NCBI GenBank assembly: GCA_044341875.1
Contig: JBIIQT010000008.1
Location: 3,393-67,392 of the forward strand
Length of the DNA: 64,000 nucleotides
From: Chitinophagaceae bacterium
Lineage (GTDB): Bacteria; Bacteroidota; Bacteroidia; Chitinophagales; Chitinophagaceae
Direction: 5' to 3'
The first letter of the stretch is position 1. Every line of letters starts with the position of its first letter. Positions 2,858 through 64,000 of this stretch are shown here, piece after piece. A program made the position numbers and the translations under genes. Below the pieces are notes generated by a model. The model was not told the origin of the DNA, searched no databases, and saw only the letters and a list, made by a program, of their open reading frames with translations.

Positions 2858-4186
2858 ATGTCTGTTACATTGGGCAACAAGGAATTTTTCCCCGGAATTG
2901 GTAAAATAAATTTTGAAGGAGTTGGATCAGACAATCCATTGGCCTACAAATGGTACAATGAAAACCAGGTCATCGCAGGAAAATCAATGAAAGAACATTT
3001 CCGTTTTGCTGTAGCATATTGGCATAGTTTCTGCAATACCGGTGCAGATCCATTCGGACCAGGCACCAAACAATTTGCTTGGGATAATGCATACAATGCA
3101 GTTGACAGAGCAAAAGAAAAAATGGATGCCGCCTTTGAGTTCATCACCAAGCTTGGGGTTCCTTATTATTGTTTTCATGATATTGATTTGGTTGATGAAG
3201 GCGCAAATCTTGCTGAATATGAAAGTAATCTCTCTGCCATTGTTGATTATGCTGACCTGAAACAAAAAGCAAGTGGCGTGAAGTTGCTTTGGGGCACGGC
3301 CAATGTATTTTCAAACCCACGCTACATGAACGGTGCCAGCACCAATCCTGATTTCAATGTATTGGCCCATGCAGCAACGCAGGTAAAGAATGCCTTGGAT
3401 GCTACGATCCGCTTGGGTGGAGAGAATTATGTATTCTGGGGTGGTAGAGAAGGGTACATGACCCTGCTTAACACGGACATGAAACGGGAGCAGGAACACC
3501 TTGCAAGGTTTCTTCACACGGCTAAAGATTATGCAAGAAAGAATGGTTTCAAGGGCACCTTCTTCATTGAACCCAAGCCCTGTGAGCCCACGAAGCACCA
3601 ATACGATTATGATTCGGCTACCGTTATTGGGTTCCTGAACAGGTATGGCTTGCAAGACGATTTCAAATTGAACATTGAAGTGAACCATGCTACCCTGGCC
3701 GGTCATACCTTCCAACATGAACTGCAGACTGCTGCAGACGCAGGCATGTTGGGCAGCATTGATGCCAACAGGGGCGATTCCCAGAACGGATGGGATACCG
3801 ACCAGTTTCCCATGAACCTGAATGAACTGGTGGAGTCAATGTTGATTATCCTCGAAGCAAAAGGATTTGCTGGAGGAGGTGTCAATTTTGACGCTAAAAC
3901 CAGGAGGAATTCTACCGACATGGAGGATATTTTCCATGCCCATATTGGCGGAATGGATGCTTTTGCAAGAGCCCTGGTAGTTGCTGACAACATCCTGCAA
4001 AAATCACCTTACAGCGAATTCCGCAAGAACCGCTATGCTTCTTTTGACTCAGGAGAAGGCAAAATGTTCGAGGAAGGTAAGCTCAGCCTATCAGACCTGA
4101 GGGATTATGCTTTCAAGGCTGGTGAGCCCAAATTAACTTCTGGCCGTCAGGAATGGTTGGAGAACATCATCAACCAATACATTTAG
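2858..4186 (+). CDS. xylA: Xylose isomerase (class II)
   Basis: [54 protein letters not shown] and GWDTDQF motifs. Confidence 0.97.
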
Positions 4187-53523: not shown

Positions 53524-54561
53524 ATGCCTAAGTTCCTCAAACACCGAGTTCGTGGGGTAATTTATTTTTGTTTATTTACATCCATTTTCCAGTTTACCGA
53601 AGTGAGGGGGCAATTGCCTGTTTTTACTCAGTTTTCTCAGAACCAACTGAATGTCAATCCGTCTTTTGCTGGCTATTTTGATGAAGATATCAAGGTGAAT
53701 GCACTCTATAGGACTCAATCCTATTCCAAGTTGGTGACCTCTACTTTTACGAATGCATCTTTTCAGATGAGACCCTACTTGGATTTTATACCTGAAAATG
53801 ATATCATGGGCTTTGGTATCAATGCGTATTCTCATAAAACCCTAAGTTCCTATTCTCATAATGCCTTATCTGCTACCATGTCATATTCCAAGGGTTTGGA
53901 TTATGCGGGTACCCAGACCCTTGGAATTGGATTTCAGGGAAGGTATAACTCTAAAAGGGTTGATTACACTCAATTGCTTTTTCCCAACCAATTTGACATC
54001 ATTGGATATACGCCCAACTTACCCAATAACGAGCCCATTCAAGTGATCAACACCAATTTTTTTGATTTGAATGCTGGCGTTTTGTATAGTGCAATTGGCG
54101 AGAATGAGGCTTTCACTGCCGGCTTTTCAATGTATAATGTTAACCAAATCAGCAGTGATAGAGCAAAATTGGCTAGCAGGGATGGATTGACTTATAATTA
54201 CCATCTTGGTTACTCTCGTTACCTCTCTGAATACAGTCAGGTTTTCTTGGGCGGACTGCATTCATCTTCCTTAAAGCAAGGCGCAACGTCTATCATTGGA
54301 GCCGTTCAGTTCATGCCAGATTATGCCAGATTTATTGGGTTTGACGTTGGGGGTATCTATGTACTGAACAACAGTTTTTCACCATTTGTGAACCTCAACA
54401 TGAATCTCGTCAGGGCATCGTTCACTTACAATGTTCCTATTGCTCCCAACATTTCCTATGTACAACAGTCTAATGCATTTGAAATAGGAATTCAACTTCT
54501 CTTCTCAAGACCAACAGAGAACAATACCATCGCCAAAAGACATATGAGTTGTTTTAAATAA
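53524..54561 (+). CDS. PorP/SprF family type IX secretion membrane protein
   Basis: FTQF..NQL.VNPSFAG, YRTQ, FDLNAG and SNAFEIGI motifs; beta-barrel pattern. Confidence 0.85.
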   Translation: MPKFLKHRVRGVIYFCLFTSIFQFTEVRGQLPVFTQFSQNQLNVNPSFAGYFDEDIKVNALYRTQSYSKLVTSTFTNASFQMRPYLDFIPENDIMGFGINAYSHKTLSSYSHNALSATMSYSKGLDYAGTQTLGIGFQGRYNSKRVDYTQLLFPNQFDIIGYTPNLPNNEPIQVINTNFFDLNAGVLYSAIGENEAFTAGFSMYNVNQISSDRAKLASRDGLTYNYHLGYSRYLSEYSQVFLGGLHSSSLKQGATSIIGAVQFMPDYARFIGFDVGGIYVLNNSFSPFVNLNMNLVRASFTYNVPIAPNISYVQQSNAFEIGIQLLFSRPTENNTIAKRHMSCFK

Positions 54562-54594: not shown

Positions 54595-57500
54595 ATGAAG
54601 TTTTTAAGAAAAATTCGATTTGCTTTCACCGGACTGCTGTTGCTATTGTCCAATCTATTGATTGCACAGACATGTCCAGTCATCAATTCGGTTACCAATA
54701 GCAGTGCAGTTTGTGTGGGTACAAGTTTTGTGATGCAAGTCAATGCCAGTTCTCCTGACCTATCAACGCTTACCTATTCTTGGTTTAAGAACGGTGTCGC
54801 AATCACTGGTGCATCCACCAATCAGTATACAATTAGTAGTTTCTCTGCAGGAGATGCTGCTTCTTACACGGTAAAGGTTGGCAATGCATGTGGAACCCTG
54901 ACTACATCAAATCCTATTCAATTGACCCTCTCAGGGTTACCTGTAATCACAAGTAGTTTTAGCAGTCCAACAACCATTTGTGTAGGAGCTGATTTCTCTA
55001 CATCAGTAACAGCTACATCGAATGTTGGCGATGCTTTGACATACCAATGGTCCAAAGGGGCGGTAAATATCACAGGCGCAACGGCATCCTCATTTTTAAT
55101 CAGCCGTGTTGCCGAGGGTGATGCTGGATCATTCAGGGTTGCAGTGACAAATTCTTGTGGAACTGTTAATAGTTCAGTACACCAGCTTATCATAAAAAAA
55201 ATCCCTGTAATCCTTAACCAACCCGCTTCGGCTCAGTTATGTACAGGTAGTCCTGTTGCTGTGACCGCTGATGTAACTGGTGCAGATACCTATTCCTGGA
55301 CCAAGAATAATATTAGTATTGGTAACAGCACAACCAATGTTACCATTTCGAGTGCCCAGCTCATTGATGGTGGAACGTATAAGTATACTGCAACAAATGC
55401 ATGTGGAGCCACTATAAGCAATGAAGCAGTTATAACGGTTAAAGCAAAACCTACGATACAATCCGTCACGCAAGGCGCTACCATTTGTCAAGGGGCAAGC
55501 AGGAGTCTTACCGTAGTGGCTAATGGGAACAACGATAATAGTCTTACCTATCAATGGAGTCTTAACGGATCTCCGATCGTGGGAGCTACTGCTGCAACTT
55601 ATTCCATTGTGAGTTTTTCATCATCAAATGCCGGTACTTATTCAGTTGCTGTCACCAATTCATGTGGAACAACCACGAGCACCAGTGTTGCTGCAGATTG
55701 CATACTCAGCCTATCCTCTGCACCTACCATCACAAGTGTATTTACCAGTCCTGTGAATATCTGTGTTGGTGAGAATTACAGCACTCAAGTAATTGCAAAC
55801 ACAAATGCTGGCGGAGCACTCAGTTATCAGTGGAAAAGAGCAGGATCACTGATTCCCGGTGCTACAAATGCCACGCTTAATCTTACTGCATTACAAACAA
55901 CTGATGCTGGTATTTATACTGTCGAAGTGATCAATGGTTGCGGACCAACTACCAGTGCTAATTTGCAGATAAATGTATCTCCAAAGCCAATCATTACATT
56001 ACAGCCGGTTGGATCAACAGTTTGTGTTGGTGCCGCCATCACTCTTTCAGCAGATGTTGCCGGCGCTACTTCGTTTAAATGGCAGAAGGATGGTGTTGAT
56101 GTTGGAAATATTACCAAGACATTTACATTGTCCAATTCCGCGAAAACAGATGCAGGATCGTTTACTTTTATTGCTTCTAATGGATGTGGTAATACCAGCA
56201 GTGCTGCTGCTGTGATGGTTATTAATGGCAAGCCTGCTATCAACAGCATTGCATCTCCTGCAAATGTATGTGTCGGCAGCACTGCAACATTGGTGGCTAG
56301 CGTTAATGGGAATGGCGATAACAATCTTACCTATTCATGGTCCTTGAAAGGCATAGCCATTCCGAATGGTAATGCATCAACACTGTCGGTCCCGAATTTT
56401 CAGTCTTCAAATGTTGGGGTATATGCTTTGGCAGTGACCAATGGTTGTGGAACGACAACTTCAACATCACTCAGTCTGGATAAGGATGTACAGTTGATTC
56501 AAGCTCCTTCAATTGCAGCTGTTGTGGATCAAAATGTTTGTTTGAATGCCACGTTGAATGTATCGCCCACGCTGACCAATTTGGGCGGCGTTCCGGCAAC
56601 TTATCAGTGGTATTTTGAAGGTGGTATATTGCCTGATCAGCAATCATCTCAGTTGCGTATTTCCAATATTCAATCAAACAAATCAGGACGTTATTTTTTA
56701 TCTGTCAACAATGGTTGCAGTCCTGTAAGTGGAGCGCCATTTAATGTGAATGTTTTGGAGTTGCCTGTAATTAAAACACAACCTGCTGCAGTTTCTGATC
56801 TTTGTGTTGGCAGTGTTTTCAGTATTGAGGTTCTTTCGACTGGTGCCCAATTGCTTCAATGGTTTAAGAATGATGTTGCGATAGCTGGTGCTAATGGTTC
56901 AAGTTATTCAATTTCATCTTTGTCTGTTTCAGATGCCGCACGTTACAATGTAAAAGTATCCAACAATTGTGGGTATTCAATTACGAGCAGCAATGCAGTG
57001 TTGACTGTTGGTTCATCTCCTACAGTTGTTACTCCGCCTGCCAATATCAGCTCCTGTTTGGGTCAGTCTGCTTCTGCCAACATTGTTGCTAACACGAACG
57101 GTGGTGGCCCTCTTAAATATGAATGGAGTACAAGTACTGGGGTTATTGCAGGCGCTACCTCATCTACCTTCAGTTTAGCAAACGTGTCTAAAGCTGATGC
57201 AAAGACCTACACAGTCTCAGTTGGAAACAATTGTAGTGGAAAGATCAACGGAGGAAGTTTTGCGTTAACATTGGCGGATAAGCCAACAGTACTTATCTCG
57301 ACATCCATACCCAATAATGCAACTACTGGGAATCCAACTGTTTGCCTGGGTTCACCTATCAGTTTTACTGTTACTGAAAATTCAAATGGGGCTGCATTGA
57401 GTTATACATGGTATAAAGATGATATAAGCAAGGGTGTTCAGAGCACTAATGCACTGACCATTGCTTCAAGTACTTCCACTGATGCAGGAGTATATAAGTT

Positions 57501-60500
57501 GGCAGTGTCAAATGCCTGCGGTGTTGCAATCAGTAATTTAATTACTTTCAGTGTTCATGACAAGCCATTAATTGTCACACAGCCTGAATCAGTTACCTTG
57601 TGTGAAGGTACTACCCTCAATTTGTCACCACTCGCGCAAAATAAGACCGGTACCAGTTCTCCTATCCAGTACAGTTGGACGTTTAATGGAAATGGACTCT
57701 CTTTTACAAGCTCCAACTTGACACTTGCCAATGTTTCAACTGCAAATACAGGGAGTTATCGTCTTCAAGCCAGAAATGAGTGCGGGTCTGTATCAAGCAA
57801 TATTGCTGCAGTTACTGTTGTTTCTAAACCTAAATATGCAATCTTAACACCTTCAAGTGAATTATCGATTTGTTCTCCAATCTCACAAACCAGAACACTT
57901 GCATTAAACGTCTATGCAGATAATGCTGTGCAACCCAATATCACCTGGACAACAGATGTTGGTAGTATTACTGGCTCAAATAATCTACCGAGTATTGGGA
58001 TTGCTTCTGTAGGAAAAAATGCCACGTATTTCGCAACCATGACGAATGCTTGTGGTAGCACGCAATTGAATAATGGTCAAGGAATTATTGTTTATAATGA
58101 ATCAGCCCTGCCTAGTGTTGCCAAATACTCTATGCCGCCCTTGACAACATTTTGTGAGCGTTCACCGATGAAATTGAATGTCTCCACCAATTCCAATGGT
58201 TATGAAACTTACGTGTGGAAGCTGAATACTAAAGTTGTTCAGACAAATCAATCAGGAAATCCAAGTTCTTCCGACTTTCAAAAAATTGTAACATCTGCCG
58301 ATGGTGGAACCTATACGGTTGACATTACAAATAGTTGTGGGACAGTAGCCAATGCAGTTAGTATTCCTGTTACCATCAATCCAACCCCTAATATTGACTT
58401 CAATGTCAGCAGTCAGACCACTCAATGTCTTGCTGGGAATATTTTCACTTTTAACAATACTTCAACCAACACCACTGGCGGAATTCGGTACACCTGGGAC
58501 TTTGGTGATGGCGTAAAGAATATTACAGCGATTCTTACAGCCTCTCACACCTATACTGTATCAGGCAATCAAGTTGTGAAGCTGACTGGTATCAATGATT
58601 TTGGTTGTACAAGTTCCAATACAAGGAATGTAGTTATTGCTGCAGATCCTCGCATTTCTGCTCAGCCTGTAGGAAAAGTAGTGTGTGAAGGAGATGGATA
58701 TTTGCTTTCTGCAACCATCAACAACGGTGGTGCGACTTCCTTGAGTTATCAGTGGTATTTTAATGGCCAACCCATTTCGAACAATAACTCCAATACATAT
58801 TCAATAGTTTCTATGAGTGCTTCCAATGTTGGAAGCTACTATCTTAAAGTAATGAATTCCGGATGTGGCCTGTCTGCACAATCTGAGCCAGTAAATATTT
58901 CTTATCAGGAGCGTCCCGATGTCAGCTTCAATGTGGGCGGTAAATCACTCACTTCTTGTATCACCGCAGCAGAATATACTTTTACCAATACTACCCCTGC
59001 AGTTGCCGGGGTGACCTATCTTTGGAATTTCTCTGATGGTAAATTTTATACCAGTCCAAATGTTGTTCATACTTTCGTAAATACAGGAATTTATAATGTT
59101 ACCCTAACTGCTTCGGCAGGAGGATGCAGTGCAACTGGGTATTTGCTTGGAAACCAAGCAAGCAGGATCAGGATTGATGGAGTTCCTGTGATCAATAAAG
59201 ATTTGCCATCCGTTGTTACCTACAAAAAGGGTGATCCCATTGTACTGAATATTAATGCCGGTGCTATAGACGCAAATGGTACAGAAATGCCTGTAAACTA
59301 TTATTGGTACAAGTTGCCATCAACGACTGTTATCGGCACCAATAGCCCTACATTTAATTCTATTACCAGTGCGTTGGTTTCTGATTCTGGTAGGTATTAT
59401 GTTACGGTAAACAATGTTTGTGGCTCAACCAGGAGCAATACCACTTTGGTTAAAGTAAATGATGTTCCTTCTATTACTTTACAGCCAATAGCCACCAGTG
59501 TTTGTTTGGGTAAGTCATTGCAATTGAAGGTTGGAGGCATTTCTAATGATAACAGTACACCCCTTTACCAATGGTATTATCGAAAAGATCTAAGTGCTAC
59601 CCCTTTGCCAATCCCGAGTGGTACTGGGCCAATTCTTAATATTGCAGCATTCTCTAACAACGATGTTGGAAATTATTTTGTCAAACTTTCCAATGAGATT
59701 GGTGCTGTTGAAAGCAATTCAATTTTGGTTATAGCAGAATCTATGCCTACTGTTAATGCCATTAATTCGATCCCATCTCTGGAATCAGGTATTTGCGTCA
59801 ACACAGGACTGCAATTGAATGCTTCAGTATCAACCTTGACCAATAGTAGTTATACTATAAGTTGGGAACAAAATGGGGTTGCGCTGACAGGTCAGGAGGC
59901 CTTGCAGATTAATTTTGCGTCAATCAAAAAATCAAATGCAGGTGAGATTGCCATAAAAGTTACCAATACTTGTGGCACATCAACACGGAAGGTAAACCTT
60001 AATGTAATTGATATTCCTCAATTCATTCAATCGCCCTCTGCTGTTAATGCCTGTATAAATGGCTCTGCCACATTTATCGCTAAGTTGCAGTCTATTAATT
60101 CAGGATCTCCTTTTGGTTATCAGTGGCTTAAAAATGGTGTTGGTTACACCGGTACTGGTATTGTAACCAATGAGCAGTTGAGTTTATCAAACATACAAAT
60201 TACAGATGCTGCTGTTTATGCCCTTCAGTCTACGAACACATGTGGTCTAAATACTTCTTCTGCAGGTAAGTTGACCGTTGTGGCCACAGCGCCAGCTATA
60301 TCTCAACAGCCTTCTGCCGTTAATACCTGTGCTGGGGGACAAAATACAGTAACATTGGTGGCGAGTTCTGATGATAATCAATTGCTTTATAGTTGGTATA
60401 AAAACGGCAATCTTTTGTCAAAAGAAGTCGCTTCACAGCTTTCATTCAATACGATTGCAGCTTCTGATGCGGGTACTTACAGGGCAATAGTCACTAATGG

Positions 60501-63500
60501 TTGTAATCTCAGCACTACAAGCAATACATTTCAAATTGTAGTTAAAGAAAAGGTAAGCCTGAATGCTAAGATTGTTGACAAGAAAATTTGTGTTGGAAAC
60601 AACCTTGGAGCCGATATCAGTTCCTATCTTATTGGCGCAGATATCAATACTACCTACCAGTGGATGTTGAACGGGATAAATCTTTCAGATGCTACGGCAA
60701 AAACGAATAACCTGACTTTGTTGAATGTCAATAAAACGAACGAAGGTTCCTATAGTGTGCTTGCGAGCAACAGTTGTGGAGCTTCTTCCTTGGATTTGTT
60801 CAAGTTGTCTACTACTGCGGTTCCTGAGATTACGACCCAGCCGATTGCTGGATTTGCGTGTGCTGGGGGAAGTTTCACGAACACGGTAGTAGTTGCAAAT
60901 GCTGCACAGCTGCCATTGAGTTACCAGTGGTACAAGGATGGCAATATTGTTGCGAGCAATGGTTTGAGTCAACAATTGTTGCTGCAGAACATTGCGATAG
61001 CAGACCAAGGATTGTATGCGGTGCGAGTGAGCAATACATGTGGTACGACACAATCGTCTTCCGCCCGTCTATCCTTGACAGGCAATCCTTTGATATCGCA
61101 GCAACCGGCAGCCATAAGCTCCTGTTCAGGTTTGGAGAACAAAGCCATTGTTGTGGCAAGTTCTGACGATAACCGTTTGGCCTATAGTTGGTACAAGGAC
61201 GGTGCATTGATTGCTGGTCAGATCAATCCTCAATTGGTATTTTCTAAGATAGGATCTGGTGATGGAGGTACCTATAGGGTTATTGTCACGAATGGATGTA
61301 ATTTGAGTACAACGAGTAGTAATTTCCAGGTTGTTGTAAAAGAGAAGATTGCATTGACGGGAAGTATTGCTGACAAGGTTCTATGTGTGGGTACTAATTT
61401 GAATGCAGACATCAGTGCATCTTTGTCGGGAGTTGATCTTGCTTCTGTTTATCAGTGGAAGTTGAATGGCATCGATATTGCTGACGCAAGTGCCAAGACC
61501 AATTTCCTTAAGTTGTTGAACCTTTCTAAAACGAACGAAGGTTCCTATAGTGTGCTTGCGAGCAACAGTTGTGGAGCTTCTTCCTTGGATTTGTTCAAGT
61601 TGTCTACTACTGCGGTTCCTGAGATTACGACCCAGCCGATTGCTGGATTTGCGTGTGCTGGGGGAAGTTTCACGAACACGGTAGTAGTTGCAAATGCTGC
61701 ACAGCTGCCATTGAGTTACCAGTGGTACAAGGATGGCAATATTGTTGCGAGCAATGGTTTGAGTCAACAATTGTTGCTGCAGAACATTGCGATAGCAGAC
61801 CAAGGATTGTATGCGGTGCGAGTGAGCAACACTTGTGGTATGACACAATCGTCTTCCGCCCGTCTATCCTTGACTGGCAATCCGGTGATATCGCAGCAAC
61901 CGGCTGCCATCAACTCCTGTTCAGGTTTGGAGAACAAAGCCATAGTTGTGGCTAGTTCTGACGATAACCGTTTGGCGTATAGTTGGTACAAGGACGGCGC
62001 ATTGATTACTGGTCAGATCAATCCTCAATTGGTATTTTCTAAGATAGGATCTGGTGATGGAGGTACGTATAGGGTTATTGTCACGAATGGATGTAATTTG
62101 AGTACAACGAGCAGCAATTTCCAGGTTGTTGTAAAAGAGAAGATTGCATTGACGGGAAGTATTGCTGACAAGGTTCTGTGTGTGGGTACTAATTTGAATG
62201 CGGACATCAGTGGATCTTTGTCTGGTGTTGATCTTGCTTCTGTTTATCAGTGGAAGTTAAATGGCATTGATATTGCTGACGCGAGTGCGAAGACCAATTT
62301 CCTTAAGTTGTTGAACCTTTCCAAGACGAACGAAGGTTCCTACAGTGTTCTTGCGAGCAACAGTTGTGGAGCTAGTTCCTTGGATTTGTTCAAGTTGTCT
62401 ACTACTGCGGTTCCTGAGATTACGACCCAGCCGATTGCTGGATTTGCGTGTGCTGGTGGAAGTTTCACGAACACGGTAGTTGTTGCGAATGCTGCACAGT
62501 TGCCATTGAGCTATCAATGGCTTAAGGATGGCAATATTGTTGCGAGCAATGGTTTGAGTCAACAATTGTTGTTGCAGAACATTGCGGTAGCAGACCAAGG
62601 ATTGTATGCGGTGAGAGTGAGCAACAGTTGTGGTACGACACAATCTTCTTCTGCCCGTCTATCCTTGACAGGCAATCCTGTGATTGCTCAGCAGCCTCAA
62701 CCCATAACTGCTTGCGTAGGGGAGGAGGGAGTCGCTACAATCGTGGCAACTTCAGATGATGATCAAATCCAATACAGCTGGTTCAAAGACGGTATTCTTG
62801 TGCCTGGGCAAATTGGACCAAGGTTGGTATTTGCCAAAATTGCATCAAATGATGTTGGTGTTTATCGAGCTGCTGTAACCAATGGATGTAAACTGACAAC
62901 AACCACCAGCAACTTTCAGATCATCATCAAGGAGAAGATAAGCCAGCTTGCAACAATTGCCGATAAGCAACTTTGTGCAGGAACCGACCTGCTGGTTGAT
63001 ATCAGTAAAAACCTGAAAGGTGCTGACCTGACTTCTTCCTACCAGTGGAAGCTAAACGGTATAAATATTGTGGATGCTTCTGCCGTCACCAATACAATTA
63101 AATTGTTGGCTGTTTCCAAATCCAATGTAGGAAACTACGCTGTTTTGGCCAGCAATTCATGCGGTTCGTCATTGCTAGACCTGTTTAAATTGGGTGTGAC
63201 CAACCTGCCATCTATCGAGACACAGCCATTGGCAGGTGAGGTGTGTGAAAATCTTGATTGGTCCAACAAAGTTGTTGTTTCCAATACTGACCAGATTGGG
63301 TTTACATACCAATGGTTTAAAGATGGTCTTCCATTGCTGGGCGCAAACAATCCGGAGATTTATCTTTCCAATGTCAATGCATCCAATCAAGGATTGTACA
63401 GTGTCAGGTTGAGCTCCGCCTGTGGAAATGTGATGAGCAACAAGGAGCTCTTCCAAGTAAGGGCCAAGCCTGACGTGTCAATATCGCTGCTTGGCACCGC

Positions 63501-64000
63501 GCCTAACCAGTGTTTGGAAACCAACGCCTTTGTGTTCAGGCCAAATGTTTTGATCAACGACAATTCAACTGTAGACCTGACTTGGGATTTTGGTGATGGG
63601 GTTTTCAGCAAGCAAAATCAGGTCAGCCACAGTTATCAGTTTTCAAATGATTTCAACGTTTACCTTTTTGCCAAAAGTGCTTATGGATGTTTGGACACTG
63701 CTAAGCAGGTGGTTTCAGTCAATGCCAAGCCTGTTGTGGTGGAGAACATTTTAAGCCAGATAATCTGTGCAGGTGGACAATTGAACTACAATGTGGATGT
63801 AAAGCTGAAGCCAAATGAAACTGTAGGATACCAATGGTTCTTTAATCAAGATCCAATTGCCAATGCGGTTAAAAATTCTTTCTCGCTCAACAACGTGCAG
63901 AAAGTCAACAACGGCTTGTACAAATTGAAGATCACCAATGCCTGTGGAATCACCTATTCATCAGAAGCTGAACTCAAGGTGGCTGAGAAGCCACTGGTTA
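54595..64000 (+). CDS. Giant Ig-like/PKD repeat surface protein (at least 3135 aa; 3'-truncated by window edge), probable T9SS cargo
   Basis: I read the frame from ATG 54595 to the window end with no stop. Sec signal MKFLRKIRFAFTGLLLLLSNLLIA, then 35 domains of ~88 aa: 32 Ig-like (YQW.K.G, D.G.Y...V.N.CG) and 3 PKD (WDFGDG 58495, WNFSDG 59023, WDFGDG 63583). Absent from the ORF track because it lacks a stop. Confidence 0.93.
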   Translation, partial: MKFLRKIRFAFTGLLLLLSNLLIAQTCPVINSVTNSSAVCVGTSFVMQVNASSPDLSTLTYSWFKNGVAITGASTNQYTISSFSAGDAASYTVKVGNACGTLTTSNPIQLTLSGLPVITSSFSSPTTICVGADFSTSVTATSNVGDALTYQWSKGAVNITGATASSFLISRVAEGDAGSFRVAVTNSCGTVNSSVHQLIIKKIPVILNQPASAQLCTGSPVAVTADVTGADTYSWTKNNISIGNSTTNVTISSAQLIDGGTYKYTATNACGATISNEAVITVKAKPTIQSVTQGATICQGASRSLTVVANGNNDNSLTYQWSLNGSPIVGATAATYSIVSFSSSNAGTYSVAVTNSCGTTTSTSVAADCILSLSSAPTITSVFTSPVNICVGENYSTQVIANTNAGGALSYQWKRAGSLIPGATNATLNLTALQTTDAGIYTVEVINGCGPTTSANLQINVSPKPIITLQPVGSTVCVGAAITLSADVAGATSFKWQKDGVDVGNITKTFTLSNSAKTDAGSFTFIASNGCGNTSSAAAVMVINGKPAINSIASPANVCVGSTATLVASVNGNGDNNLTYSWSLKGIAIPNGNASTLSVPNFQSSNVGVYALAVTNGCGTTTSTSLSLDKDVQLIQAPSIAAVVDQNVCLNATLNVSPTLTNLGGVPATYQWYFEGGILPDQQSSQLRISNIQSNKSGRYFLSVNNGCSPVSGAPFNVNVLELPVIKTQPAAVSDLCVGSVFSIEVLSTGAQLLQWFKNDVAIAGANGSSYSISSLSVSDAARYNVKVSNNCGYSITSSNAVLTVGSSPTVVTPPANISSCLGQSASANIVANTNGGGPLKYEWSTSTGVIAGATSSTFSLANVSKADAKTYTVSVGNNCSGKINGGSFALTLADKPTVLISTSIPNNATTGNPTVCLGSPISFTVTENSNGAALSYTWYKDDISKGVQSTNALTIASSTSTDAGVYKLAVSNACGVAISNLITFSVHDKPLIVTQPESVTLCEGTTLNLSPLAQNKTGTSSPIQYSWTFNGNGLSFTSSNLTLANVSTANTGSYRLQARNECGSVSSNIAAVTVVSKPKYAILTPSSELSICSPISQTRTLALNVYADNAVQPNITWTTDVGSITGSNNLPSIGIASVGKNATYFATMTNACGSTQLNNGQGIIVYNESALPSVAKYSMPPLTTFCERSPMKLNVSTNSNGYETYVWKLNTKVVQTNQSGNPSSSDFQKIVTSADGGTYTVDITNSCGTVANAVSIPVTINPTPNIDFNVSSQTTQCLAGNIFTFNNTSTNTTGGIRYTWDFGDGVKNITAILTASHTYTVSGNQVVKLTGINDFGCTSSNTRNVVIAADPRISAQPVGKVVCEGDGYLLSATINNGGATSLSYQWYFNGQPISNNNSNTYSIVSMSASNVGSYYLKVMNSGCGLSAQSEPVNISYQERPDVSFNVGGKSLTSCITAAEYTFTNTTPAVAGVTYLWNFSDGKFYTSPNVVHTFVNTGIYNVTLTASAGGCSATGYLLGNQASRIRIDGVPVINKDLPSVVTYKKGDPIVLNINAGAIDANGTEMPVNYYWYKLPSTTVIGTNSPTFNSITSALVSDSGRYYVTVNNVCGSTRSNTTLVKVNDVPSITLQPIATSVCLGKSLQLKVGGISNDNSTPLYQWYYRKDLSATPLPIPSGTGPILNIAAFSNNDVGNYFVKLSNEIGAVESNSILVIAESMPTVNAINSIPSLESGICVNTGLQLNASVSTLTNSSYTISWEQNGVALTGQEALQINFASIKKSNAGEIAIKVTNTCGTSTRKVNLNVIDIPQFIQSPSAVNACINGSATFIAKLQSINSGSPFGYQWLKNGVGYTGTGIVTNEQLSLSNIQITDAAVYALQSTNTCGLNTSSAGKLTVVATAPAISQQPSAVNTCAGGQNTVTLVASSDDNQLLYSWYKNGNLLSKEVASQLSFNTIAASDAGTYRAIVTNGCNLSTTSNTFQIVVKEKVSLNAKIVDKKICVGNNLGADISSYLIGADINTTYQWMLNGINLSDATAKTNNLTLLNVNKTNEGSYSVLASNSCGASSLDLFKLSTTAVPEITTQPIAGFACAGGSFTNTVVVANAAQLPLSYQWYKDGNIVASNGLSQQLLLQNIAIADQGLYAVRVSNTCGTTQSSSARLSLTGNPLISQQPAAISSCSGLENKAIVVASSDDNRLAYSWYKDGALIAGQINPQLVFSKIGSGDGGTYRVIVTNGCNLSTTSSNFQVVVKEKIALTGSIADKVLCVGTNLNADISASLSGVDLASVYQWKLNGIDIADASAKTNFLKLLNLSKTNEGSYSVLASNSCGASSLDLFKLSTTAVPEITTQPIAGFACAGGSFTNTVVVANAAQLPLSYQWYKDGNIVASNGLSQQLLLQNIAIADQGLYAVRVSNTCGMTQSSSARLSLTGNPVISQQPAAINSCSGLENKAIVVASSDDNRLAYSWYKDGALITGQINPQLVFSKIGSGDGGTYRVIVTNGCNLSTTSSNFQVVVKEKIALTGSIADKVLCVGTNLNADISGSLSGVDLASVYQWKLNGIDIADASAKTNFLKLLNLSKTNEGSYSVLASNSCGASSLDLFKLSTTAVPEITTQPIAGFACAGGSFTNTVVVANAAQLPLSYQWLKDGNIVASNGLSQQLLLQNIAVADQGLYAVRVSNSCGTTQSSSARLSLTGNPVIAQQPQPITACVGEEGVATIVATSDDDQIQYSWFKDGILVPGQIGPRLVFAKIASNDVGVYRAAVTNGCKLTTTTSNFQIIIKEKISQLATIADKQLCAGTDLLVDISKNLKGADLTSSYQWKLNGINIVDASAVTNTIKLLAVSKSNVGNYAVLASNSCGSSLLDLFKLGVTNLPSIETQPLAGEVCENLDWSNKVVVSNTDQIGFTYQWFKDGLPLLGANNPEIYLSNVNASNQGLYSVRLSSACGNVMSNKELFQVRAKPDVSISLLGTAPNQCLETNAFVFRPNVLINDNSTVDLTWDFGDGVFSKQNQVSHSYQFSNDFNVYLFAKSAYGCLDTAKQVVSVNAKPVVVENILSQIICAGGQLNYNVDVKLKPNETVGYQWFFNQDPIANAVKNSFSLNNVQKVNNGLYKLKITNACGITYSSEAELKVAEKPLV
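60733..62679 (+). repeat. 795-bp in-frame tandem repeat (about 2.5 near-identical copies, 3 Ig domains per unit)
   Basis: The aaaacgaacgaaggttcc anchor recurs at 60733, 61528 and (aagacg variant) 62323, exactly 795 bp apart. Confidence 0.93.

Follow-up and report, generated by a model that had tools for sequence, protein, structure and literature searches.

Disulfide bonding between successive domains proposed for a giant, probably type IX-secreted adhesin of a Chitinophagaceae bacterium, and one conserved junction that lacks the cysteine pair

The window analyzed here, a stretch of 64,000 nucleotides equivalent to positions 3393-67392 of contig JBIIQT010000008.1 (C19) in the Chitinophagaceae bacterium assembly GCA_044341875.1, carries near its end most of a gene for a giant surface protein, referred to below as the adhesin. 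Its open reading frame (ORF) starts at position 54595 on the forward strand, runs on beyond 63999 off the end of the window, and codes for 3733 amino acids once it is followed on the contig to the stop codon; the array of tandem domains and the putative type-B C-terminal sorting domain extend to contig position 69188. Two cysteines recur in nearly every domain, one at the end of strand A' (Cys-a) and one in the turn between strands F and G (Cys-b). Taken as a whole, the pattern is best explained by a surface rod in which each domain is disulfide-bonded to the next, and this explanation is considered very probable. The locus contains the following features.

53524-54561, forward strand: gene for an outer-membrane carrier belonging to a type IX secretion system (T9SS), PorP/SprF family, 345 amino acids (TIGR03519, E 5.6e-25, 88.4 bits; curated cut-off 90.55)
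54595-54666, forward strand: signal peptide, residues 1-24 (MKFLRKIRFAFTGLLLLLSNLLIA), read from the sequence with a predicted cleavage site
54670-63999, forward strand: domains 1-35 of the tandem array, 32 of them I-set immunoglobulin (Ig)-like and 3 PKD-like (Pfam and segmentation with hidden Markov models, HMMs)
54673-54675, forward strand: cap cysteine C27, one residue ahead of the proline at the start of strand A in domain 1, with C99 as its proposed partner (cap present in 27 of 27 complete N-termini)
55699-55701, forward strand: C369, the sole cysteine for which no partner is predicted, where strand G of domain 4 ends and an unusually long linker follows (cysteine list and domain alignment)
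58378-59178, forward strand: PKD-Ig-PKD module, domains 15-17, directly before the unstapled junction in all orthologues
59176-59475, forward strand: domain 18, with Lys1544 (59224-59226) in the Cys-a column and Cys-b C1609 (59419), for which a bond to Cys-a of domain 17, C1455 (58957), is proposed (HMM alignment)
59455-59751, forward strand: domain 19, with Ile1702 (59698-59700) in the Cys-b column and Cys-a C1637 (59503), for which a bond to Cys-b of domain 20, C1793 (59971), is proposed (HMM alignment)
63466-63732, forward strand: domain 34, PKD-like, with Cys-a and Cys-b at the profile columns of the Ig type (HMM segmentation)

Segmentation with two HMMs made from the adhesin's own repeats divided the full protein into 41 contiguous domains, 34 of the Ig type and 7 of the PKD type, and 35 of these fall in the window. 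The Pfam families found were Ig_3, I-set, Ig_2, PKD_4 and Ig_7 ('CHU_C-associated'). Ig_3 (PF13927, 414 bits) and I-set (PF07679, 294 bits) were above the gathering score, and PKD_4 (PF18911 / PF00801), with 140.5 bits across three stretches in the window part, passed it as well. A first-pass annotation, made from the letters of the window, had counted 35 Ig domains that carry Cys-a and Cys-b with two exceptions. The two-cysteine columns are indeed present in all 35 domains, with 34 Cys-a and 34 Cys-b, but domains 15, 17 and 34 are of the PKD type; their two cysteines occupy the profile columns used in the Ig type.

There are 81 cysteines in the full protein (39 Cys-a, 40 Cys-b, C27 and C369), and 80 of them stand at three defined sites: Cys-a at profile column 17 (motif x-C-x-G), Cys-b at column 76 (motif N-x-C-G), and the N-terminal cap. 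In domain 1 the two are C40 (54712) and C99 (54889-54891). The three sites are invariant in 36 orthologues of 34-77% identity, and the placement of the cysteines is far beyond chance. The classical cysteines of strands B and F, the glycine between A' and B, and the NxxG turn between F and G were located by means of the I-set consensus. Against this consensus, Cys-a precedes the A'-B glycine by two residues and Cys-b takes the third place in the NxxG turn; in the domain alignment valine or other aliphatic residues occupy the classical B and F positions, so that a canonical intradomain disulfide is lacking. Cys-a and Cys-b of the same domain are 54-63 residues apart, Cys-a of one domain and Cys-b of the next 140-156 (median 148), and Cys-b of one domain and Cys-a of the next 25-37.

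One of the two cysteines is missing from three domains. Domain 18 has no Cys-a (none occurs between C1511 and C1609), domain 19 has no Cys-b (none between C1637 and C1734), and the last domain, 41, which lies outside the window, has Cys-b (C3629) and an asparagine in the Cys-a column. The coordinates 54673, 54889 and 55699 and the losses in domains 18 and 19, all given in the first-pass annotation, were reproduced from the translation and the cysteine list. The absence of a cysteine at the Cys-a site of domain 18 was correctly described there, but the column is held by Lys1544 (59224) and not by the neighbouring Tyr1543 (59221). The extra cysteine at 55699, C369, had been called unexplained and stays without a partner; it is the single predicted free thiol of the protein. 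It is confined to the closest relatives: its equivalent was found only in the orthologues P0002 and P0004, a similar cysteine stands in domain 12 of P0005, and the other orthologues lack it. Domains 4 and 7 are of a similar subtype (NGN(N/G)DN..LTY.WSL.G) and are followed by longer linkers (CILSLSSAP and DKDVQLIQAP; 55690-55740 and 56470-56510) than are found at other junctions; C369 is part of the first of these linkers.

Co-variation was analyzed in homologues. A search with the full protein gave 120 of them, and 70 with at least eight domains and the dominant two-cysteine pattern were segmented with the two HMMs, which yielded about 1,780 junctions; in the co-loss counts, slips of 2-3 residues in the alignment were tolerated. 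Between Cys-a of one domain and Cys-b of the next, both cysteines were present in 1725 cases, both were lost in 51, and only one was lost in 2. For Cys-a and Cys-b of the same domain the corresponding numbers were 1780, 1 and 157, and for Cys-b of one domain and Cys-a of the next 1658, 1 and 146. No co-loss signal was seen in these homologues for Cys-a with Cys-a, Cys-b with Cys-b, or Cys-a with the Cys-b two domains on. Most apparent exceptions to co-loss were misalignments by one or two residues, and at eight further junctions, where the HMM stopped short of the Cys-b column, Cys-b was also missing after the loss of Cys-a.

Thirty-seven of the 51 co-losses represent one ancestral event, always at the first Ig-Ig junction after PKD-Ig-PKD, in orthologues that differ widely in identity (34-77%) and in number of domains (26-50). 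The pair lost from domains 18 and 19 is absent from all 36 orthologues, with K, N, E or A in the Cys-a column and I, V or T in the Cys-b column. The other 14 co-losses belong to a distant family of 24-28% identity and required at least 8 changes, versus 14 with shuffled labels, when changes were counted by parsimony on a tree that FastTree built from 319 junction units after masking of the trait residues, a rough count since short repeats make such trees weak. Counting independent events by clustering the junctions at 35% identity or more was uninformative, as all Ig repeats fell into one cluster. Paralogues in the window's own genome were also considered as a source of further co-losses, but no second Ig-type array was found there. 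In a distant family (P0039, P0040, P0043, P0044, P0052, P0053, P0055, P0056, P0058, P0061 and P0066) there are three cysteines per domain. The third stands at the classical F-strand position (Y-x-C), has no partner on strand B, and is retained even where Cys-b was lost; it is probably a buried, lone relic of the classical Ig disulfide.

The two ends of the array were informative as well. The signal peptide ends in LLIA and is followed by QTCP (54661-54675). In Bacteroidetes the residue at +1 after the cut by signal peptidase I is characteristically glutamine, which gives a pyroglutamate N-terminus, and because of this rule the cut is placed between A and Q, so that the mature protein would likely begin with Q25-T-C27-P. 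The motif of A-Q, 0-2 residues and then the cap cysteine with its proline is kept in orthologues. The cap cysteine was found in all 27 orthologues with a complete N-terminus, directly before the proline or alanine with which strand A of domain 1 starts; it precedes Cys-a of that domain by 13-14 residues and is 0 to 2 residues from the AQ motif. C27 was also considered as a lipoprotein cysteine and rejected, as there is no lipobox and the spacing is fixed relative to domain 1 and variable relative to the signal peptide. At the other end, all 34 orthologues with a complete C-terminus have a last domain without Cys-a. The internal arrays of the distant proteins are artificially broken by HMM gaps, and Cys-b of their apparent first domains is therefore uninformative. 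The mature protein has an even number of cysteines (68, 72, 78, 82 or 84) in almost every orthologue whose N-terminus is complete, the exceptions being those with an extra cysteine of the C369 type; apart from such extras, cysteines elsewhere were found only in the signal peptide. A cap cysteine, a last domain without Cys-a and even counts are exactly the pattern predicted by pairing with an offset of one domain, which leaves one cysteine (C369) unpaired in the adhesin, whereas pairing within domains or between Cys-b and the following Cys-a would leave five each.

The fold was predicted with AlphaFold2 for residues 25-284 (domains 1-3) together with 18 orthologous sequences, giving a mean local confidence (pLDDT) of 94.6 and a predicted template-modelling score (pTM) of 0.73. 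By DSSP secondary structure assignment, strand A' of each domain in this model closes with Cys-a, and Cys-b lies in a two-residue F-G turn. The best match in the PDB was the extended rod of titin I67-I69 (template-modelling score, TM, 0.78; root-mean-square deviation 4.3 A). In the I-set topology strand A', which is parallel to G, finishes at the C-terminal pole of the domain, and the F-G turn lies at the N-terminal pole. Since the two sites are at opposite poles, Cys-a and Cys-b of the same domain are by this topology separated by about the length of a strand (roughly 25-30 A) and cannot bond; the argument is one of topology. Cys-a of each domain faces the pole of the next domain that carries Cys-b.

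The nearest solved relative is GhpA, the grappling-hook protein A of Aureispira sp. CCB-QB1 (PDB 9flp, and also 9fls, 9flu-9fly and 9g8b; phmmer E 3e-67), in which an intramolecular disulfide between Cys-2988 and Cys-3140 was seen by cryo-electron microscopy (10.1101/2024.01.29.577165). The sequence of GhpA was identified as P0123 (5898 amino acids), in which a 97-residue piece of an alignment-derived fragment matches exactly at residue 1156. An orthologue from an Aureispira metagenome-assembled genome (MAG), L003, 87% identical, had been tried as a proxy for the numbering and was rejected, as it is about 1000 residues shorter and its numbering is unusable. In P0123, C2988 stands in 'ngpiCfgd' and is a Cys-a, and C3140 stands in 'vtvngCssv' and is the Cys-b of the next domain; between them lie C3058, the Cys-b of the same domain as C2988, and C3085, the Cys-a of the next. 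Read on this sequence, the published bond corresponds exactly to Cys-a of one domain with Cys-b of the next, at a spacing of 152 residues as compared with 140-156 in the adhesin. HMMER aligns Cys-a and Cys-b of the adhesin with GhpA 'lCeGd' and 'dgCitd', and the same two profile columns are cysteine in 39-40 of the 41 domains of the adhesin and in all 54 of GhpA. In the relatives of GhpA no loss of a cysteine was detected in any stem domain (21-54 per protein), and they provide no evidence from co-variation.

Three other explanations of the cysteines were weighed. In most disulfide-bearing Ig-like domains the bond is formed within the domain, which is the default expectation for two cysteines per domain, and the spacing of 54-63 residues resembles that of the classical bond between strands B and F. 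In the adhesin, however, the cysteines are not at the B and F positions: one closes A' and the other lies in the F-G turn, which by the predicted model and the titin match puts them at opposite poles. Loss within the same domain was joint once and single 157 times, C27, C1609, C1637 and C3629 would be left unpaired, conserved as such in all orthologues, and the bond seen in GhpA is between domains. Pairing within domains is accordingly very improbable. Still harder to credit is the other register, in which Cys-b of each domain would bond to the Cys-a that follows 25-37 residues later and C27 to Cys-a of domain 1. This register would make use of the N-terminal cysteine and explain why C1609 and C1637 both stay, but the co-loss that it predicts occurred once in about 1,800 junctions as against 146 single losses; it would leave C1511, C1734, C3548 and C3629 unpaired, Cys-b lies at the N-terminal pole of its domain, which in the model is far from the next domain, and the register conflicts with C2988-C3140 of GhpA.

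It was also considered that the cysteines could be mostly not oxidized in vivo, being free thiols, metal ligands or only partially bonded, or that they could join protomers of a multi-stranded bundle. Such an arrangement would agree with the failure to recognize a DsbA/DsbB/VKOR system in the genome and with the seven-stranded bundle formed by GhpA. On the other hand, strict pairwise co-variation and even cysteine counts are what marks obligatory pairs, the protein is extracellular and its organism has its nearest named relatives among Sediminibacterium MAGs, the disulfides of GhpA are described as intramolecular, and the adhesin has neither the N-terminal hook region of GhpA nor any hint of a bundle. 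This explanation is thus quite improbable, if somewhat less so than the two alternative pairings.

Bonding of each domain to the next remains the preferred explanation. The positions and the conservation of the cysteines, their co-variation at an offset of one domain, the fold and the homology to GhpA are shown by the analysis. From these together we infer that the disulfides form in the adhesin and would stiffen and stabilize the rod, as has been proposed for GhpA. In the arrangement proposed, the adhesin would be a fibrillar type-B cargo of the T9SS, carried by the PorP/SprF-like protein encoded just upstream, with a shaft in which 41 beta-sandwich domains, I-set Ig or PKD-like, follow each other in tandem with linkers of few residues between them. 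The C-terminal pole of each domain would abut the N-terminal pole of the next and allow the disulfide between Cys-a and the following Cys-b to form. Cys27 would stand in for a missing 'domain 0' and bond Cys-b of domain 1, and the last domain would need no Cys-a, as no domain follows. The result would be 40 disulfides in a staggered order, each closing a loop of about 148 residues that overlaps with its neighbours, with only junction 18/19 unbonded and only C369 unpaired.

Several observations weigh against this arrangement. An oxidase for 40 disulfides is not evident: no DsbB, VKOR, Thioredoxin_4 or exported DsbA was found in the genome, which is 94% complete, and the sole ORF of the DSBA family (C64:4257-4817, 217 amino acids, CGWC motif) has no signal peptide; there are also nine matches of the Thioredoxin_2 type. 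The bonds may form outside the cell or by means of an unrecognized oxidase. The scores of the C-terminal sorting domain (33.4 versus 35 bits) and of the carrier (88.4 versus 90.55) are slightly below the curated cut-offs. Moreover, the truly independent co-loss events are few, and their number, between 2 and about 9, is uncertain.

Most of what the first-pass annotation had proposed on the bonding agrees with these results. It had placed the two cysteines at opposite ends of the domain, as the model and the titin match also do, and it had paired Cys-a of one domain with Cys-b of the next, for which the co-loss at offset one, the end effects, the I-set topology and the bond in GhpA now argue. 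Its view of the losses in domains 18 and 19 as one compensated pair is supported by co-loss at this offset only and in all orthologues. The capping of Cys-b of domain 1 by the N-terminal cysteine is likewise supported at both ends of the array (27/27 and 34/34). Finally, it had suggested that co-variation be checked in orthologues, and in the homologues 51 co-losses stand against 2 single losses.

That annotation had further taken junction 18/19 as a single unlocked hinge. It is in fact the only unstapled junction of the 40 and is conserved as such in all orthologues, but the hinge itself was not supported. The linker (VKVNDVPSITLQP) is of normal length, and AlphaFold2 predicted domains 18-20 with a confidence on a par with that of domains 1-3 (pLDDT 93.5 and pTM 0.71, compared with 94.6 and 0.73); the fit of this model to the straight titin segment (TM 0.60-0.67) was somewhat poorer than that of domains 1-3. 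Unusual conservation, which a functional core would show, was not seen in domains 18 and 19; their conservation matches that of their neighbours and simply rises towards the C-terminus. The conserved absence alone is not evidence of selection, because two simultaneous changes would be needed to regain the pair. A functional hinge at this junction is conceivable but doubtful.

The junction always follows PKD-Ig-PKD and was kept through 34-77% identity and large changes in domain number; the domain string ...P I P [I I]... occurs in 37 of 37 orthologues. It may be a built-in hinge or mechanical fuse in an otherwise covalently locked filament of about 160 nm. In the distant family with the other 14 co-losses, unstapled junctions recur every 4-14 domains, from which it would follow that Bacteroidota tune the stiffness of such filaments by deleting single inter-domain disulfides. 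On present evidence we regard both readings as rather unlikely.

GhpA is a type-B cargo of the T9SS, which the adhesin probably is too, and resembles it in a long shaft built of Ig-like domains in tandem (Pfam Ig_7, Ig_2 and CHU_C) and in having a C-x-G cysteine at the end of A' and another in the F-G turn. Unlike the adhesin, it has an N-terminal hook of 1400 amino acids, a heptameric hollow bundle, repeats of 83 amino acids and some extra cysteine pairs, and none of the junctions among its 54 domains is unstapled, whereas the adhesin has one that is conserved. In the adhesin the signal peptide is followed directly by the array, which starts at residue 26 and consists of I-set domains of 88-100 amino acids with PKD domains interspersed. 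The adhesin is not an orthologue of GhpA: the type of repeat is common to both and the whole architecture is not, and the orthologues of GhpA (P0122-P0133) form a separate set.

The Ig domains of the titin I-band (I65-I70 and I67-I69; 3b43, 2rik and 2rjm) share with the adhesin the I-set fold, the extended rod and the short linkers. They also have the NxxG F-G turn and an N-terminal proline motif at the domain interface. They differ in that there are no covalent bonds between domains, in being eukaryotic and intracellular, and in an identity of only 16-18%. Among solved proteins, the nearest sequence relatives of single adhesin domains after GhpA were 9ncf_S (E 1.5e-33) and 9c2d_S (E 5.7e-28). 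These and Hoc (3shs) are phage Ig-like tail or decoration domains that show the YQW and DAGxY motifs of the adhesin domains but lack both cysteines, with Asn or Glu-Gly at Cys-a and Gly or Ala at Cys-b in the alignments. As these relatives are free of the cysteines, the pair is an addition to the fold rather than a part of it, and the resemblance suggests that this Ig subtype has been exchanged between phages and surface proteins of Bacteroidota.

In fibrillar adhesins and pili of Gram-positive bacteria, intramolecular isopeptide or thioester cross-links give thin filaments resistance to force and to proteases. The adhesin would be functionally analogous to such stalks as a long, thin and covalently cross-linked surface filament (survey PMC12617251), while the stalks differ in that their isopeptide bonds link Lys with Asn/Asp, lie within domains, and belong to unrelated domains.

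Inter-domain disulfides in a homologous T9SS shaft are already known, as they were published for GhpA, and the novelty assumed in the first-pass annotation does not hold to that extent. For chains of inter-domain disulfides as a general description of T9SS adhesins, the literature gave only the GhpA paper, and as far as the literature could be searched, it contained neither the general register nor the cap cysteine, the terminal omission, the parity rule or the co-loss test. If the proposed arrangement is correct, the rod would be covalently laddered, with 40 overlapping loops that would restrict how far a filament of about 160 nm in length and about 3 nm in thickness can be bent, twisted or proteolysed, and would be a Gram-negative disulfide counterpart of the isopeptide-stabilized Gram-positive stalks. 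A structural remark on GhpA would also become a set of rules readable from genomes, i.e., a cap cysteine, no Cys-a in the last domain, an even cysteine count, and co-loss at offset one. For the T9SS it would raise a question, as an oxidized cargo of this kind cannot thread as an unfolded chain. The practical value is modest and would lie in better annotation of giant surface proteins of Bacteroidota and in the chance to compare, by single-molecule mechanics, junctions that are naturally stapled and unstapled.

As judged from its sequence, the adhesin is probably a giant type-B surface cargo protein of the T9SS. Its final 90 residues match TIGR04131, the T9SS type-B sorting domain (33.4 bits, E 3.7e-8; cut-off 35), and precomputed matches to PF13585 (CHU_C) exist for many of the orthologues. 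The ORF of the PorP/SprF family ends 33 bp upstream of the adhesin ORF, and a SprA translocon is encoded in the genome (SprA_N, 540.7 bits, contig C97). Downstream of the adhesin gene are metK and ahcY. The nearest named homologues of the adhesin are from Sediminibacterium MAGs.

The pair of genes resembles SprB and SprF of Flavobacterium johnsoniae in combining a giant, here probably type-B, cargo with a dedicated adjacent PorP/SprF gene, and differs from them in that the carrier gene is upstream here and downstream there. No SprB repeats (PF13573) were found in the adhesin by a Pfam scan, and we know of no structure or disulfide map of SprB. The C-terminal tail of SprF has a Cys-x-Cys motif, whereas the carrier encoded here ends in ...AKRHMSCFK with a lone Cys343 (54550-54552) three residues from the C-terminus. 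In F. johnsoniae the Cys-x-Cys of SprF links the carrier by a disulfide to the gliding-track protein GldK (PMC12635249), and in PorG of P. gingivalis one cysteine is enough. By analogy, the lone cysteine hints that the carrier of the adhesin could also be linked to a track or hub.

Two further observations were made on the adhesin. Domains 21-32 (about 60013-63440) contain three near-identical super-repeats of three domains and 265 amino acids each, and in the translation every copy has both cysteines. The Bacteroidota O-glycosylation sequon D-(S/T)-(A/I/L/V/M/T), for which about 13 matches were expected from composition across the whole protein, has no match in residues 1-3033; all 12 matches fall in the last 700 residues (3034-3625; window position 63694 onwards, mostly beyond the window), which form the PKD-rich, cell-proximal part.

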